From the IMG/VR virus record IMGVR_UViG_2698536454_000005, positions 1 through 5,991 of that record: a stretch of 5,991 bases of DNA. The stretch is one strand, 5' to 3'. Shown piece after piece: positions 1 through 5,991 of this stretch. Source of the DNA: a virus. Its lineage: Duplodnaviria; Heunggongvirae; Uroviricota; Caudoviricetes. Both the position numbers and the translations under genes were made by a program. How positions within the stretch are numbered: position 1 is the first letter of the stretch; the number at the start of each line of letters is the position of its first letter. The notes beneath the pieces are model-generated. The model did no database searches. It saw only the letters and a program-made list of their open reading frames with translations, and was not told the DNA's origin.

Positions 1-1
1 G

Positions 2-659
<658 letters not shown>

Positions 660-662
660 TCC

Positions 663-995
663 ATGCATCGTATAGACACGAAAACCGCGCAGAAGGATAA
701 GTTCGGCGCGGGTAAGAACGGTTTTACCCGTGGTAACCCCCAGACCGGCACACCTGCCACCGATCTGGATGATGACTACTTTGACATGTTGCAGGAAGAA
801 CTCTGCAGCGTGGTGGAGGCATCCGGTGCCAGCCTGGAGAAGGGGCGGCATGACCAGCTGCTTACCGCGCTTCGTGCGCTGCTGTTAAGCCGCAAGAATC
901 CGTTTGGCGATATCAAATCTGATGGCACGGTGAAAACGGCTCTCGAAAACCTTGGTTTGGGAGAAGATCAGTTCAACACTATTGTTTCAGAATAA
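663..995 (+). CDS. Tail-fibre protein, constant N-terminal part (Sc-like), ending in a 9-codon stub after a crossover-site copy; truncated in this arrangement
   Basis: ATG 663 is preceded by GGAG with 6-nt spacing. The N-terminus [21 protein letters not shown] is what I recall from Mu-like/e14-like fibre N-termini. Codons ENLGLGE (946-966) are encoded by the crossover core that also begins both variable cassettes. After the core the frame runs only DQFNTIVSE then TAA. Confidence 0.75.
940..965 (+). other. Site A: 26-bp invertase crossover site inside the fibre constant-part codons (ctctcgaaaacc tt ggtttgggagaa)
   Basis: Near-palindromic 12+2+12 layout. The right half plus next base is identical to 2510-2522 and to the reverse complement of 5912-5924. 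Central dinucleotide tt at 952-953. Same orientation as site B. Confidence 0.6.
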
Positions 996-1046
996 TCACT
1001 TAACCCCATTTATGTCGGTTGAGGTTATAAGTCACGGAGACCAGAT

Positions 1047-1391
1047 ATGTCCTTAAAGTATGCACATGAAAAATTTCATACTGCAGTACTTACTCTTGCG
1101 GGCCATGGAAGTATTCAAGAACGCTTGATTAATTCGTATGTTTTTAGCCTTGGGCATCTTAAAACAGCCGATGATATTCCAAATGCCTTACAAAGCAGGT
1201 TCGATGAATTATGTAAGGAACTGACTAAGTTTGATGCCACTGGCGATGAGGGGCGAGTTCAAGCAACAGTATCAAAACTTAACGATTTCGAGATCAATAA
1301 ACTGATCGAAGATATTGTCAGTCTTAACGATGATATTTGCATGAAATTGGCTCTGACGGATGAGACTTACCAAGACATACACCAAAGTTAA
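1047..1391 (+). CDS. Hypothetical small acidic protein (114 aa), AT-rich cargo gene of unknown function
   Basis: ATG 1047 preceded by GGAG 1036-1039 with 7-nt spacing. A hand-counted 100-bp sample at 1047-1146 is about 35% GC, against about 55% for 701-800. Hand count gives 19 Asp+Glu versus 11 Lys+Arg. No motif I can assign. Confidence 0.65.
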   Translation: MSLKYAHEKFHTAVLTLAGHGSIQERLINSYVFSLGHLKTADDIPNALQSRFDELCKELTKFDATGDEGRVQATVSKLNDFEINKLIEDIVSLNDDICMKLALTDETYQDIHQS

Positions 1392-1418
1392 TTGATTAAA
1401 TTCAAAAAGTTAACGTTC

Positions 1419-1441
1419 AACCAGCCAGTTTTTGGCTGGTT
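1419..1441. terminator. Putative bidirectional intrinsic terminator between the convergent 114-aa and 70-aa genes
   Basis: Perfect 9-bp stem aaccagcca (1419-1427) / tggctggtt (1433-1441) with a 5-nt loop. T-rich tract follows on the plus strand (1442-1450). On the minus strand it is followed by an A/T-rich tract containing a T5 run (complement of 1403-1407). Confidence 0.5.
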
Positions 1442-1475
1442 TATTGTCTTATAATATTCTTGCTCGAATGATGCA

Positions 1476-1688
1476 CTATTTATGATGTAATCCGGACATC
1501 AGTTCATGGACAAGATTATCTCTTTCATTGTGTTGCAACCGTAAATGCATAGCAAAAAGGTGAGCACTATCCTCATTCCTCTTCAAGCCATGCTGTTCAA
1601 GATACCCGAAAAAACGGCTTCTCTTATCCGCTATTTCCTGAGTCTGACGTGCAACATTTACCAAATTTTCTAGCGTTTTTCTTGGCAT
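1476..1688 (-). CDS. Hypothetical small His-rich protein (70 aa), cargo gene downstream of the invertase on the same strand
   Basis: ATG is the complement of 1686-1688. A perfect AGGAGG Shine-Dalgarno (complement of 1696-1701) lies 7 nt upstream. AT-rich. Seven His, no Cys. No recognisable motif. Confidence 0.65.
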   Translation of the reverse strand: MPRKTLENLVNVARQTQEIADKRSRFFGYLEQHGLKRNEDSAHLFAMHLRLQHNERDNLVHELMSGLHHK

Positions 1689-1886
1689 ACTATTTCCTCC
1701 TGAAATTGTTGTAATTCACTAGGATATTCATTTTAATTTGTATCATTTAGTACCAAAACCGCTATCAATTAACAAAGCCATCGTTGTGGTTTACCTTGCA
1801 GCCGTTTTTTGTCATTGACTCTATGTGAAAATAATGAATCATCATGAGATTGGCTCACACGTTCTTGAATTCGACGAGCTGTGTCT

Positions 1887-2441
1887 TTATTTATCTCCTG
1901 CCGGAAACCTCTGATACAAAGTCGATACGCCAACATCATAGATAATCGCAACTTTCTGGCGCGGAACTCCTGATGCAATTAATCGTCCGGCTTGTGCCCA
2001 TTGTTCTGGTGTAAGTTTGGGACGACGTCCACCAATTCGTCCCTGTGCGCGAGCAGCTTCCAGTCCAGCTTTTGTTCGTTCAACAATCAGTTCTCGTTCC
2101 ATTTCAGCCAGGGCCCCCATCACATGAAAGAAAAAGCGCCCCATTGGGGTACTGGTATCAATTGAATCCGTCAGACTACGAAAGTTGATGCCTCGTTCGC
2201 GCAACTCCTCCACCAGCACGACAAGATGCCGCATACTGCGCCCCAGTCGGTCCAGTTTCCAGACCACCAGCGTATCGCCTGCCGATAATGTCCTGAGCAG
2301 TTTTTTCAGTCCCGGCCTTTCGGACTTTGTACCGCTTATCTTGTCTTCAAAAATCAGCTCGCATCCTGCACAGTTCAGCGCATTACGTTGTAGATCTGTG
2401 TTCTGGTCATTTGTTGACACACGTACATAGCCAATAAGCAT
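1887..2441 (-). CDS. pin: Site-specific serine DNA invertase, Hin/Gin/Cin/Pin family
   Basis: Starting from the MLIGYVRVSTNDQ methionine (complement of 2439-2441) gives 184 aa. Catalytic serine lies in the RVSTNDQ context near the N-terminus. Conserved blocks LVVWKLDRLGRS and GRFFFHVMGALAEMERELI are present, with a C-terminal helix-turn-helix (GVSTLYQRFP). AGGGAG sits 7 nt upstream. The ORF-track start at 2477 adds 12 residues encoded by the inverted repeat and is probably not the real start. Confidence 0.93.
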   Translation of the reverse strand: MLIGYVRVSTNDQNTDLQRNALNCAGCELIFEDKISGTKSERPGLKKLLRTLSAGDTLVVWKLDRLGRSMRHLVVLVEELRERGINFRSLTDSIDTSTPMGRFFFHVMGALAEMERELIVERTKAGLEAARAQGRIGGRRPKLTPEQWAQAGRLIASGVPRQKVAIIYDVGVSTLYQRFPAGDK

Positions 2442-2442
2442 G

Positions 2443-2522
2443 GTAGATCTCCCTGACAAAAGCAGGAATGATGCCATTTGCTCGTTATTTCTGCATTTTC
2501 ATAAACGTTGGTTTGGGAGAAG
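2443..2522. repeat. Left inverted repeat (80 bp) of the invertible segment; contains the invertase RBS and site B
   Basis: 2443-2522 is the exact reverse complement of 5912-5991, compared base by base. Identity ends at 2523/5911. Confidence 0.9.
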
Positions 2523-2962
2523 CGGCAAAACGAAATGTGGGCAACGGGGAAAACCAAATCCCTGATATGTCTTTCTGGACGGTTACTGGTGGCAATGGAA
2601 ATTTTGTGATTCGTCAACCTGACGGGCTAATCATTCAGATGGTTACTGTAAGTATAAGCGGTCCAGTGGCGATGAATGGAATGACTGATAATGCTTATGC
2701 CATTACAGGTTCTAATAAGTCTTATATTGCCACAGCCACATTGCCCTTTGTATTTCCTAATAAGGTGCTGGGCGTTATCCCTCTGGTATCAACAACAGCT
2801 TATGGTGGTGTATCCAGTAATATTACAGGTTCATACGCGACGGCGGTTTGTTCTTTTGCCGCTGTCAGGGGGAATAATACGATTGTGTTCAAAGTCGACA
2901 AACCACTGAATGCAGCCTTTCCTTCAGATACCAGCGTCTCAGCGTTAATCATTGGACGGTAA
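2468..2962 (+). CDS. Tail-fibre C-terminal variable cassette Sv1; the first 18 codons are encoded by the inverted repeat and the cassette is not joined to the constant part in this arrangement
   Basis: The frame is continuous with the GLGE codons of the crossover core and unique sequence starts at 2523. Gly/Thr/Ser/Asn/Val-rich 146-aa tip. Stop TAA 2960-2962 is followed 2 nt later by the ATG of a tail-fibre assembly gene. Confidence 0.65.
   Translation: MMPFARYFCIFINVGLGEAAKRNVGNGENQIPDMSFWTVTGGNGNFVIRQPDGLIIQMVTVSISGPVAMNGMTDNAYAITGSNKSYIATATLPFVFPNKVLGVIPLVSTTAYGGVSSNITGSYATAVCSFAAVRGNNTIVFKVDKPLNAAFPSDTSVSALIIGR
2496..2521 (+). other. Site B: 26-bp crossover site (ttttcataaacg tt ggtttgggagaa)
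   Basis: 12+2+12 layout with central tt at 2508-2509. Resembles hix/gix-type sites as I recall them. Lies at the inner end of the left inverted repeat. Confidence 0.7.
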
Positions 2963-3978
2963 GAATGAACTCAGTATTCTTTTCACCCGCAAGTAAAAGT
3001 TTTTATCTGCAAGAATTGTTTCCAGAATATGAGGATGCGGGAACGCTTCCTGATGATGTTATTGAAATTACCAGAGAAACATATGAGCAATTTCTTGGGC
3101 TGCATCCAGAAGGGAAAGAAATTGGCGCTGACAGTTCAGGACGGCCAATATGGATTAATTCCCCGCCGCCTTCAAAAGAGGATGAGATGCTGGCGGCTGA
3201 AATGAAAAAGATATCTTTGGTTTCAGAAGTCAATACCTACATCAATACCCATCAGTGGCCTGGCAAAGCTGCTATTGGTCGTCTGAAAGGTTACGAGCTG
3301 GAACAATATAATTTATGGCTGGATTATCTGGACGCACTGGAACTGGTTGATACCTCCAGTGCTCCAGATATTGAATGGCCTACGCCTCCGGTAGTTCAGG
3401 CCAGATGACATCCGGCGCGGTGCTGGTATCTGTTGCAGTCACCGCGTCAATGTAATCCAGCACAGCGTTAAGCCGGGTTGTTTCTGCCTGCGTCAGCTTC
3501 CGCCCGGCCTGCAATTTCAGCTGAATCAGACTAATGGAAGCCATAGCAGCATCAATCAGTGACTGGCGCCGTACTTCTGCCGCGTCTACTGCGGCGTTAT
3601 GCTGTGCCTCAGTATCGGTCACCCATTTCTCACCATCCCATTTATCGTATGACGTTAACGGGGCGATAGTGGTTGTATTTTCAGGGTAATCACCCGGAAC
3701 TGTGATTTCTTTTGATTCTCCTGTTTCGGTGCTATAGACGATTTCACCGCGATGGTCTGGCACATATTCCCATGAGTTAAAATCTGCAGAACGGCAAATT
3801 GCATAACCAGCTTTATATGAGCCAGGAGCATCTAAACAGGAACATGCCGGGATACCAACACCCACAGCAAGATATTCAGTTGATGTGGAAATATATTCCC
3901 GTGTTTCACCATCATAATTATAAACGGTAATGTCTCCGGCCTTTGTGGCGATGAGTTCATTATTTAATACAGCTTTAC
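2508..3978. repeat. Tandem direct repeat, copy 1 (1471 bp)
   Basis: Matches 3980-5450 at an offset of 1472. Supported by identical translations of three ORF pairs and by reading the boundary regions and one ~470-nt internal stretch directly. Base 3979 matches neither flank. Confidence 0.85.
2965..3408 (+). CDS. Tail-fibre assembly chaperone (Tfa; Mu U / P2 G family) partnered with Sv1
   Basis: C-terminus DTSSAPDIEWPTPP matches the conserved Tfa C-terminal motif (compare APDVIWPELP in the other Tfa here). Coupled immediately downstream of Sv1. Confidence 0.8.
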   Translation: MNSVFFSPASKSFYLQELFPEYEDAGTLPDDVIEITRETYEQFLGLHPEGKEIGADSSGRPIWINSPPPSKEDEMLAAEMKKISLVSEVNTYINTHQWPGKAAIGRLKGYELEQYNLWLDYLDALELVDTSSAPDIEWPTPPVVQAR

Positions 3979-4000
3979 ATTGGTTTGGGAGAAGCGGCAA
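3380..4000 (-). CDS. Tail-fibre assembly chaperone (Tfa) copy whose native ATG start is replaced by the duplication junction; possibly non-functional
   Basis: Identical to the 4852-5457 product from KAVLNNELIATK onward. The native MIS start is absent and the only in-frame start is TTG at 4000, inside the crossover core. Its 3' end overlaps the convergent Tfa gene by 29 bp (3380-3408). Confidence 0.45.
   Translation of the reverse strand: MPLLPNQCKAVLNNELIATKAGDITVYNYDGETREYISTSTEYLAVGVGIPACSCLDAPGSYKAGYAICRSADFNSWEYVPDHRGEIVYSTETGESKEITVPGDYPENTTTIAPLTSYDKWDGEKWVTDTEAQHNAAVDAAEVRRQSLIDAAMASISLIQLKLQAGRKLTQAETTRLNAVLDYIDAVTATDTSTAPDVIWPELPEA
3968..3993 (+). other. Site C: hybrid junction carrying a crossover core half-site (tacagctttaca tt ggtttgggagaa)
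   Basis: The right half and central tt are identical to sites A and B. The left half is the start region of the Tfa gene and does not resemble a site half. Probably a recombination product junction rather than a functional full site. Confidence 0.5.
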
Positions 4001-4434
4001 AACGAAATGTGGGCAACGGGGAAAACCAAATCCCTGATATGTCTTTCTGGACGGTTACTGGTGGCAATGGAAATTTTGTGATTCGTCAACCTGACGGGCT
4101 AATCATTCAGATGGTTACTGTAAGTATAAGCGGTCCAGTGGCGATGAATGGAATGACTGATAATGCTTATGCCATTACAGGTTCTAATAAGTCTTATATT
4201 GCCACAGCCACATTGCCCTTTGTATTTCCTAATAAGGTGCTGGGCGTTATCCCTCTGGTATCAACAACAGCTTATGGTGGTGTATCCAGTAATATTACAG
4301 GTTCATACGCGACGGCGGTTTGTTCTTTTGCCGCTGTCAGGGGGAATAATACGATTGTGTTCAAAGTCGACAAACCACTGAATGCAGCCTTTCCTTCAGA
4401 TACCAGCGTCTCAGCGTTAATCATTGGACGGTAA
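3985..4434 (+). CDS. Duplicate Sv1 variable cassette with no start codon; expressible only if fused to the constant part at site C
   Basis: Translation identical to Sv1 from GEAAKRNVG onward. The frame is closed upstream by TGA at 3952-3954 and has no ATG. Begins at the crossover core. Confidence 0.5.
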   Translation: MGEAAKRNVGNGENQIPDMSFWTVTGGNGNFVIRQPDGLIIQMVTVSISGPVAMNGMTDNAYAITGSNKSYIATATLPFVFPNKVLGVIPLVSTTAYGGVSSNITGSYATAVCSFAAVRGNNTIVFKVDKPLNAAFPSDTSVSALIIGR

Positions 4435-4436
4435 GA

Positions 4437-4880
4437 ATGAACTCAGTATTCTTTTCACCCGCAAGTAAAAGTTTTTATCTGCAAGAATTGTTTCCAGAAT
4501 ATGAGGATGCGGGAACGCTTCCTGATGATGTTATTGAAATTACCAGAGAAACATATGAGCAATTTCTTGGGCTGCATCCAGAAGGGAAAGAAATTGGCGC
4601 TGACAGTTCAGGACGGCCAATATGGATTAATTCCCCGCCGCCTTCAAAAGAGGATGAGATGCTGGCGGCTGAAATGAAAAAGATATCTTTGGTTTCAGAA
4701 GTCAATACCTACATCAATACCCATCAGTGGCCTGGCAAAGCTGCTATTGGTCGTCTGAAAGGTTACGAGCTGGAACAATATAATTTATGGCTGGATTATC
4801 TGGACGCACTGGAACTGGTTGATACCTCCAGTGCTCCAGATATTGAATGGCCTACGCCTCCGGTAGTTCAGGCCAGATGA
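4437..4880 (+). CDS. Tail-fibre assembly chaperone (Tfa), duplicate of 2965-3408
   Basis: Translation identical to the 2965-3408 product. Confidence 0.75.
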   Translation: MNSVFFSPASKSFYLQELFPEYEDAGTLPDDVIEITRETYEQFLGLHPEGKEIGADSSGRPIWINSPPPSKEDEMLAAEMKKISLVSEVNTYINTHQWPGKAAIGRLKGYELEQYNLWLDYLDALELVDTSSAPDIEWPTPPVVQAR

Positions 4881-5457
4881 CATCCGGCGCGGTGCTGGTA
4901 TCTGTTGCAGTCACCGCGTCAATGTAATCCAGCACAGCGTTAAGCCGGGTTGTTTCTGCCTGCGTCAGCTTCCGCCCGGCCTGCAATTTCAGCTGAATCA
5001 GACTAATGGAAGCCATAGCAGCATCAATCAGTGACTGGCGCCGTACTTCTGCCGCGTCTACTGCGGCGTTATGCTGTGCCTCAGTATCGGTCACCCATTT
5101 CTCACCATCCCATTTATCGTATGACGTTAACGGGGCGATAGTGGTTGTATTTTCAGGGTAATCACCCGGAACTGTGATTTCTTTTGATTCTCCTGTTTCG
5201 GTGCTATAGACGATTTCACCGCGATGGTCTGGCACATATTCCCATGAGTTAAAATCTGCAGAACGGCAAATTGCATAACCAGCTTTATATGAGCCAGGAG
5301 CATCTAAACAGGAACATGCCGGGATACCAACACCCACAGCAAGATATTCAGTTGATGTGGAAATATATTCCCGTGTTTCACCATCATAATTATAAACGGT
5401 AATGTCTCCGGCCTTTGTGGCGATGAGTTCATTATTTAATACAGCTTTACTTATCAT
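4852..5457 (-). CDS. Tail-fibre assembly chaperone (Tfa; TfaE / Mu U' type) partnered with Sv2
   Basis: ATG (complement of 5455-5457) overlaps the Sv2 stop in an ATGA arrangement. C-terminus TSTAPDVIWPELPEA carries the conserved Tfa motif. Confidence 0.85.
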   Translation of the reverse strand: MISKAVLNNELIATKAGDITVYNYDGETREYISTSTEYLAVGVGIPACSCLDAPGSYKAGYAICRSADFNSWEYVPDHRGEIVYSTETGESKEITVPGDYPENTTTIAPLTSYDKWDGEKWVTDTEAQHNAAVDAAEVRRQSLIDAAMASISLIQLKLQAGRKLTQAETTRLNAVLDYIDAVTATDTSTAPDVIWPELPEA

Positions 5458-5966
5458 GCAGCCCTCACAATATAATTAAAGGCGATGTTACGGGAGCGGG
5501 TTTCAGATGCTGTGCGAACTGAGCGAGATGCGTCGAATGTCCAGTTATAAGCGCCATAACCCTCAATAATTTCGGCTTCCTTTAGACCTGTAGATAATAC
5601 TTGCCCATGTTGACTAAATGGCCCTGAACTAAGTACGTCTCTAAAAAGCTGGGTACGCCCAAAAGAACCAACAATATTCTGAATTGCATCATTCTGTGCA
5701 GATAATAAGTTACGACCAGAGTCAATCCCGCGCCCATCATCCCAGCCACGAATAAATTCACCGCGTAAATCTGGTAATTTTAATGTTGGGTAAGCCTTTG
5801 CCAGATTTGGGTACTTTTCAGAAGAAAATACTGCTCCGTTACATTTTAGCCACCCCGTTGGCGGAGTGGCGGAAGGCCACGGAACAGGCACACCAACGGG
5901 TAATGCCGAACCTTCTCCCAAACCAACGTTTATGAAAATGCAGAAATAACGAGCAAATGGCATCAT
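5454..5966 (-). CDS. Tail-fibre C-terminal variable cassette Sv2 (receptor-binding tip of the P2 H / Mu S / Stf type); first 18 codons encoded by the inverted repeat
   Basis: Carries conserved tail-fibre tip motifs: PWPSATPPTGWLKCNGA, YPNLAKAYP, LPDLRGEFIRGWDDGRGID and the C-terminal NIAFNYIVRAA. In frame with GLGE of the crossover core. Confidence 0.85.
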   Translation of the reverse strand: MMPFARYFCIFINVGLGEGSALPVGVPVPWPSATPPTGWLKCNGAVFSSEKYPNLAKAYPTLKLPDLRGEFIRGWDDGRGIDSGRNLLSAQNDAIQNIVGSFGRTQLFRDVLSSGPFSQHGQVLSTGLKEAEIIEGYGAYNWTFDASRSVRTASETRSRNIAFNYIVRAA

Positions 5967-5991
5967 TCCTGCTTTTGTCAGGGAGATCTAC
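5912..5991. repeat. Right inverted repeat (80 bp, cut by the window end)
   Basis: Exact reverse complement of 2443-2522. May extend beyond position 5991. Confidence 0.9.
5913..5938 (+). other. Site D: 26-bp crossover site (ttctcccaaacc aa cgtttatgaaaa), inverted relative to A, B and C
   Basis: Reverse complement of site B, with central aa at 5925-5926. Confidence 0.7.

Follow-up and report, generated by a model that had tools for sequence, protein, structure and literature searches.

Gin of Mu, Cin of P1 and Hin of Salmonella are sister systems of Pin of the e14 prophage, and a switch of the P-segment type was described in the 1980s. Serine invertases cleave at the central dinucleotide of the crossover site. 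In the Gin/Cin/Hin/Pin family the enhancer consists of two Fis sites 48 bp apart, usually lying within the 5' end of the invertase gene, some 100 bp away from a crossover site, and the invertasome mechanism is the basis of the preference for inversion over deletion. Hin carries its invertase gene and enhancer inside its own invertible segment, an arrangement that is native and conserved, and flips a promoter. The stretch analyzed here, 5,991 nucleotides (nt) filed as a Caudoviricetes virus (IMG/VR record IMGVR_UViG_2698536454_000005, positions 1 to 5,991; the window), is Escherichia coli DNA from an e14-like, Mu-baseplate-type prophage remnant adjoining ssrA. Its locus is the known e14-type Pin/P-segment tail-fibre-tip switch of E. 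coli, with the crossover core present in four copies. This four-site picture is best explained as an ordinary two-site e14/P-segment switch plus a unique duplication of 3,028 bp, read as a chimera or mis-assembly of mixed isomers or as another construction artefact (probability about 0.72).

In strain K-12 the repeat of the e14 P-segment is TTGGTTTGGGAGAAGG (PMC12529663), and the crossover repeat of the window is the same. The two loci also share their gene order (ymfQ, the constant part of stf, the invertible Sv-tfa / tfa'-Sv' segment, and pin), a Gin-like Pin, the occurrence of both orientations in nature and a Fis pair in the 5' end of the invertase gene. The window locus differs from e14 of K-12 in its position, beside ssrA and not at the e14 site, in its cargo (orf70, orf114 and a gene of 343 amino acids (aa), versus mcrA), and in the 3,028-bp duplicated block, which is present in the window only and in no natural relative.

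Three crossover repeats are found in a P2-like prophage locus of enteropathogenic E. coli (EPEC) E2348/69 (PMC4272514), and Min of plasmid p15B is described as a six-site multiple-inversion region in the part of PMC11850598 that cites Sandmeier 1992. Like these, the window has more than two Gin-family cores in one tail-fibre locus, and nested inversions are formally allowed. However, each extra site heads a distinct tip in Min and in the EPEC locus, whereas the extra sites of the window head a stub and an exact duplicate; its joints also lie off the crossover point, and its layout is seen in one sequence only. The likeness to the Hin system of Salmonella (described in PMC3798978) is that pin lies between the outermost sites of the window, A and D. 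The difference is that the placement of pin in the window results from secondary duplication, and that immediately after D another copy of pin apparently begins.

Crossover sites in the window

The 15-mer TTGGTTTGGGAGAAG has four exact copies in the window, at 952-966, 2508-2522 and 3980-3994 on the plus strand and at 5912-5926 on the minus strand. With up to three mismatches allowed, its expected count is 0.19, and four or more copies appeared in 0 of 200 shuffles. An earlier, sequence-only reading of this DNA had already noticed four copies of the core, three direct and one inverted, and the exact search bears this out together with the proposed geometry (A, B and C direct, D inverted, pin and cargo between A and D). 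Its coordinates were right to within 1-2 nt, 951-966 and 3980-3996 being properly 952-966 and 3980-3994. The real crossover site is 26 bp long, organized as 12-2-12, and the 15-mer comprises its TT core and inner half. The crossover point is the TT formed by the first two bases of the 15-mer (952-953 at site A). The sites are as follows, Sc being the constant part of the side tail-fibre gene.

Site A, 940-965, plus strand: full 26-bp site CTCTCGAAAACC-TT-GGTTTGGGAGAA, outer half native to the Sc side
Site B, 2496-2521, plus strand: full 26-bp site TTTTCATAAACG-TT-GGTTTGGGAGAA, outer half native to the pin side
Site C, 3968-3993, plus strand: core and inner half only, the outer half TACAGCTTTACA being tfaE coding DNA
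Site D, 5913-5938, minus strand: full 26-bp site TTTTCATAAACG-TT-GGTTTGGGAGAA in the orientation opposite to A, B and C, its outer half being of the pin side

On the Sc side, L001-L003, L008-L010 and L012-L014 have the same 26-mer as site A. In A, B and D, 9-10 of the 12 outer-half positions agree with the natural consensus, and in C 4 of 12; the weakest natural outer halves, in two natural pin-side sites, match at 5 of 12. Both the B/D and the A/D pairs have the same TT core, an identical inner half GGTTTGGGAGAA and inverted orientation. The right flank of A and the left flank of C are DNA foreign to these sites. A repeat search revealed a perfect tandem repeat of 1,472 nt that starts at site C (2508-3978 = 3980-5450), and a perfect inverted repeat of 80 nt (2443-2522 / 5912-5991) that reaches the right end of the window. 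The tandem repeat, the 80-nt inverted copy, the 26-bp size of the sites and the foreign flanks of A and C are all additions to what had been noticed before.

A duplicated block and its joints

The canonical order of the locus, seen in L002 and L003, is an IS3-family element, ymfQ, Sc, site (+), Sv1, tfa1, tfaE', Sv2', site (-), pinE, orf70, orf114', the 343-aa gene and ssrA; L001 is identical except that the segment is flipped. Both flip states occur in complete genomes (Sc::Sv2 in L001, Sc::Sv1 in L002 and L003), at 99.9-100% identity. Among 15 natural loci, the 11 intact ones have exactly two sites, in inverted orientation, and the four degraded ones have 0-1. A third natural site was sought in the 343-aa gene and none was found there, the best match having 3-4 mismatches and being located elsewhere.

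The window was decomposed by exact matching, with L002 as the canonical complete-genome reference:

Window 1-966: L002 6001-6966
Window 967: A
Window 968-2522: reverse complement of L002 8884-10438
Window 2523-3978: L002 6967-8422
Window 3979: A
Window 3980-5991: L002 6952-8963

This leaves no remainder: four pieces, all 100% identical to L002, and two single A's make up the whole. The window amounts to a canonical stretch of 2,963 bp with an insertion of 3,028 bp at the Sc-side site. The insertion consists of an A, a stretch of 3,011 nt found uninterrupted in the flipped isomer, a further A and a second copy of the 15-mer. The 3,011-nt part begins with the final 28 nt of the 343-aa gene, continues through orf114, orf70, pin, a site, Sv1 and tfa1, and stops at codon 2 of tfaE. 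This one block accounts for the foreign right flank of A, for site B, for site C, for the tandem repeat and for the second pin implied after D. The two copies of the tandem repeat (1,471 nt each) show zero divergence. The insertion is bounded by two joints:

Joint J1 (966/968), 967: a single A with a template in neither partner
Joint J2 (3978/3980), 3979: one A without a template, separating codon 2 of tfaE' from the 15-mer

The new joints are marked by the strings GGGAGAAGATCAGTTC and GCTTTACATTGGTTTGG. From knowledge of the family, the top-strand cut is expected at 953/954; J1 is 13 nt to its right, behind a perfect inner half-site. At J2 the additional A stands directly before the TT core, after tfaE DNA. 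The two joints coincide exactly with the two ends of the 15-mer, the maximal perfect repeat, and we infer that such a position is very unlikely for two independent random breaks. As judged from their sequence, the outer joints J1 and J2 are not products of the invertase, because exchange at a quasi-site would give a hybrid site whose parts meet at TT, and none is seen. Tandem-inversion duplication, microhomology-mediated break-induced replication (MMBIR), transposition with a 15-bp target duplication, A-tailing and adapter read-through were considered by reasoning only; none of them predicts flush joints together with the added A's.

Distribution of the arrangement

The four-site arrangement was not found among 5,426 complete E. 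coli genomes, and BLAST searches with 81 nt over each joint gave no spanning match in the same set. The exact J1 and J2 sequences were not found in GTDB species representatives, JGI metagenomes or IMG/VR, none of the phage and plasmid records covers 80% or more of the window, and the two chimeric open reading frames were not found in an index of 153 billion genes. The neighbourhood of the exact orf114 protein is canonical in 10 of 10 distinct cases. The arrangement is therefore unique to the window sequence among the collections searched. Some matches to the J2 query start a few bases left of the 15-mer; these are P1-like and P2-like sites with TTACC or ATACC flanks, and the resemblance is due to chance. 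Two genomes match all pieces of the window at 100%, one of them being NZ_CP180607.1, the second version of its assembly (GCF_040271735.2, strain PS1Thumoskin9).

Three database records of 1,920-1,923 bp, labelled as complete circular plasmids (CP148528.1, NZ_CP148539.1 and NZ_CP148540.1; L016-L018), consist solely of this invertible segment, and they have been carried into PLSDB and RefSeq. Their breakpoints are 0-3 nt from the edges of the 15-mer, at the inner edges of the crossover repeats, and these 1.92-kb 'plasmids' are almost certainly assembler artefacts of a locus in mixed orientation. They involve the same segment as the window and break at the edges of the same 15-mer repeats. However, they eject the segment as a circle, whereas the window carries an insertion or duplication whose far ends (the start of tfaE and the 3' end of the 343-aa gene) are off the repeat edges.

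Potential for multiple inversion

The sequence-only reading had likened the locus to multiple-inversion systems rather than to a simple switch, with the invertase inside the rearrangeable unit. Part of this stands. Translations confirm that recombination of A with D would fuse Sc in frame to Sv2 (Sc ends in ...ENLGLGE, and the reverse strand at D gives ...VGLGEGSALPVGVPVP), and recombination of B with D would indeed flip the inner segment, this being the ordinary P-segment flip. It is also correct that pin lies between A and D; as a departure from known systems, however, this placement falls away, since Hin is already so arranged. The deletions proposed between A and B and between A and C run against the preference of the family, which according to PMC11850598 (citing Johnson 2015) favours inversion, not deletion, at sites in the same orientation.

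If the DNA is real, nested multi-site inversion could formally take place, and by enumeration the isomers reachable by inversion alone number 4 with A, B and D active, or 12 with all four sites active. The fibre tips are still two, as in a two-site locus. The extra sites add no coding diversity, because site A leads to a 9-codon stub and site C heads an exact duplicate of Sv1. In a multiple-inversion region, a distinct cassette would be expected at each extra site, along with a layout common to related elements and joints compatible with exchange at the core dinucleotide. In the window the extra sites bring no distinct cassette, the relatives examined have at most two sites, and neither J1 nor J2 is compatible with such an exchange. 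With all intact relatives examined being two-site, and the block being an exact duplicate whose joints fall outside the crossover point, the claim of a system beyond the simple switch is not upheld.

Origin of the duplicated block

The four-site picture comes from a 3,028-bp block set into the Sc-proximal site of a two-site switch, and the block is probably an artefact. This origin is favoured because the layout is unique, the copies show zero divergence, the joints are not of the recombinase type, a second pin is needed, and the 1.92-kb 'plasmids' provide a precedent. Several points weigh against it. No assembler or library mechanism can be named that adds exactly one untemplated A per joint, and the absence of errors in the remaining sequence speaks against a sloppy consensus. 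The duplicated 1,472-nt unit was considered as an assembly-graph repeat node common to prophages, and this is not supported by the one example examined, L004, where identity runs on through Sv2'. The source may be an isolate outside the collections searched, and absence elsewhere is thus no proof of an artefact. In addition, site C could be weakly active if the DNA is real, because its core-proximal bases, TTACA, are one base off the TTACC of a natural P1-like site. The ends of the window were also considered as equal k-mer overhangs of a de Bruijn contig, and rejected (99 nt of insertion sequence on the left, 80 nt of repeat on the right). A search for assemblies with the same Sc context but without the segment, the counterpart of the 'plasmid' artefacts, found none.

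A real and very recent one-off illegitimate duplication in one isolate is less likely. Under this rather improbable explanation, recombination independent of Pin would have produced an inverted duplication of pin and cargo and a partial tandem duplication of the segment, now a nested three- or four-site system; Pin would invert the DNA between A and D, and with it its own gene, its enhancer and the cargo, as well as that between B and D and perhaps that between C and D, and Sc would be joined to a tip in only some of the isomers. A, B and D each have the full natural 26-bp sequence and are suitably oriented, Pin is intact with an enhancer-like Fis pair in cis, and the sequence is otherwise flawless, all of which would suit a functional duplication with its 4 or 12 isomers, as would the evidence from Hin that an invertase can reside in its own segment. 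However, two joints that are flush with both ends of the 15-mer and carry an untemplated A each would be left without a mechanism, and the arrangement is in no other genome or contig searched. Furthermore, the prophage is a remnant (ymfQ is truncated by the insertion sequence, and L002 has no other tail genes), so tail-fibre switching would not be under selection for virion function, and the current state cuts the fibre at 110 aa. That the window is a true copy of a chromosome in which a duplication not made by a recombinase, placed in the crossover site, turned a two-site switch into a nested three- or four-site system in one step, giving 4 to 12 isomers, is about as improbable; if true, it would be a snapshot of the possible birth of Min-like multiple-inversion regions. 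Far less probable than either is an evolved system resembling Min of p15B or a shufflon, with extra sites selected for fibre variants and for control of invertase and cargo inversion. The four core copies in the window agree with it, and natural three-repeat P2-like loci (PMC4272514) and six-site Min are known, but the reading is largely refuted by extra sites without a new tip, copies that are 100% identical, a layout kept in no relative and joints away from the crossover points. Just as improbable is an origin of J1 and J2 as Pin crossovers at quasi-sites in the 3' end of the 343-aa gene and the start of tfaE, comparable to Cin at quasi-cix. A weak half-site likeness is visible by eye at the 3' end of the 343-aa gene (TTGAAAAGG vs TCGAAAACC), and the start of tfaE, GCTTTAC-TT-ATCAT, offers a TT as a possible core. 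However, exchange at the core would keep the right half of the quasi-site at J1, where a perfect GGTTTGGGAGAAG precedes the joint instead; J2 has an additional A between GCTTTAC and TT, and the reciprocal products are not present. The quasi-site explanation is refuted by the sequence unless J1 is taken to have gained nine further substitutions and J2 an insertion.

Pin and its putative enhancer

Pin has an N-terminal Resolvase catalytic domain (PF00239, 1.5e-51) and a C-terminal HTH_7 domain (PF02796, 3.6e-13). The whole of the protein can be aligned with Gin (PDB 3UJ3, E = 1.3e-93), and its VRVSTNDQ motif contains Ser9 as the nucleophilic serine. It is predicted to be an intact Gin-like small serine recombinase. 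One candidate regulatory element lies within its gene:

2357-2419, minus strand: putative recombinational enhancer in the 5' end of pin, with two Fis-consensus matches

The matches are centred at 2412 and 2364, 48 bp apart, and are 96.5 and 144.5 bp from the core of site B; a Fis-consensus pair of such geometry occurs in 0.7% of shuffles. The putative enhancer is a motif-level match, and at that level the pair has the geometry of a Gin/Cin/Hin/Pin family enhancer. In the proposed mechanism, Pin and the Fis-bound enhancer inside its own gene would synapse two inverted 26-bp sites. Pin would cleave at the central TT, the strands would rotate and the Sv1-tfa1 / tfaE-Sv2 segment would flip, with the constant tail-fibre N-terminus then being fused to either tip.

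Genes of the window

The further features of the window are:

1-99, minus strand: end of an IS3-family insertion sequence, which truncates ymfQ; context outside the switch
96-659, plus strand: ymfQ (Mu Gp48-like baseplate protein; PF10076, E=1e-26; annotated ymfQ in L002), N-terminus lost to the insertion sequence
663-966, plus strand: Sc, the constant part of the gene for the side tail fibre, with ...ENLGLGE as its last residues at the crossover site
968-2507, minus strand: inverted pin-cargo copy (L002 10438-8899, 100% identity), with the next four features
968-995: last 28 nt of the 343-aa gene
1047-1391, plus strand: orf114
1476-1688, minus strand: orf70
1887-2441, minus strand: pin
2522-3978, plus strand: partial first segment copy (L002 6967-8422; Gp53-like_C and Caudo_TAP Pfam matches), with the next three features
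to 2962, plus strand: Sv1 tip, first copy
2965-3408, plus strand: tfa1, first copy
3380-3978, minus strand: tfaE', first copy, without its first codons and without its partner Sv2
3994-5911, plus strand: complete invertible segment (L002 6966-8883; Caudo_TAP and Collar Pfam matches), with the next four features
to 4434, plus strand: Sv1, second copy
4437-4880, plus strand: tfa1, second copy
4852-5457, minus strand: tfaE
5454-5911, minus strand: Sv2
5912-5991, plus strand: start of the second, forward pin upstream region, the window ending 2 nt before the expected pin ATG

The Sc open reading frame of the window spans 663-995: after 966 there is a stub of nine codons and a stop (DQFNTIVSE-stop), and in its present state the fibre is cut short at 110 aa. 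Sc at 663-966 is identical to L002 6663-6966, where reading continues into Sv1; pinE of L002 starts at 8965. The segment carries two alternative tips in frame with Sc, GLGE being followed by AAKRN... (Sv1) or GSALPV... (Sv2). Pfam matches in the cassette are Caudo_TAP twice (chaperones), and Collar and Gp53-like_C (tail-fibre tips). The convergent tfa1 (+) and tfaE (-) share 29 nt at their 3' ends (3380-3408 and 4852-4880), and an imperfect inverted repeat of 18 nt near the overlap (3318-3335 / 3444-3461) is a possible bidirectional terminator common to both.

Prophage context and cargo

At the left end, the match to the multi-copy insertion sequence stops at window 99-103 and homology to ymfQ begins at 96; the terminal inverted repeat of the element is at L002 6074-6099. 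The IS3-family element (L002 4842-6099, its transposase with a programmed frameshift) was inserted in ymfQ, and everything upstream has been removed. What is left of the prophage in this lineage is ymfQ', the fibre switch, pin and three cargo genes. L008, L010 and L012-L014 retain the Mu-like baseplate genes gp45-gp48.

The ends of prophages are a frequent place of moron or defence genes. The cargo genes (114 aa, 70 aa and 343 aa; window 1047-1391 and 1476-1688, L001 5000-6031) are conserved and lie between pin and ssrA, at the prophage end. They gave no Pfam or PADLOC match, and phrog_6191 (unknown function) is the only match of the 343-aa protein. A public collection lists the exact orf114 protein in 5,504 blocks. 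In L007, L011 and L015 (about 6841-7600), pin is missing or shortened to 115 aa, and lambda-like fibre genes (phage_tail_N, Peptidase_S74 and Ail_Lom) border directly on the cargo, which suggests that the ssrA-proximal cargo block was kept while the adjoining prophage was replaced.

The Sv1-tfa1-tfaE'-Sv2' cassette is also found nearly unchanged, with a handful of mismatches in ~1.9 kb, in a P2-like prophage (L004 4005-5951); a diverged version, with 435 ungapped mismatches, is present in a P1-like plasmid (L005 4006-5946). Each of these has a different constant part and a different invertase. The cassettes of L004 and L005 are a classic case of horizontal exchange of fibre-tip cassettes across phage families.

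Significance

The Pin switch, its multi-site relatives (Min and the EPEC P2-like locus) and an invertase inside the segment (Hin) were already known, and the new biology of the locus is slight. Invertible loci are, however, a recurring source of mis-assemblies, and extra 'sites' in them need to be checked for joints compatible with the recombinase because such loci often mis-assemble. Products of e14 P-segment inversion have been reported to block adsorption of phage T2 (PMC12529663). Thus, intact Pin modules in prophage remnants may still serve the host, in the form of the canonical module and not of the four-site layout.

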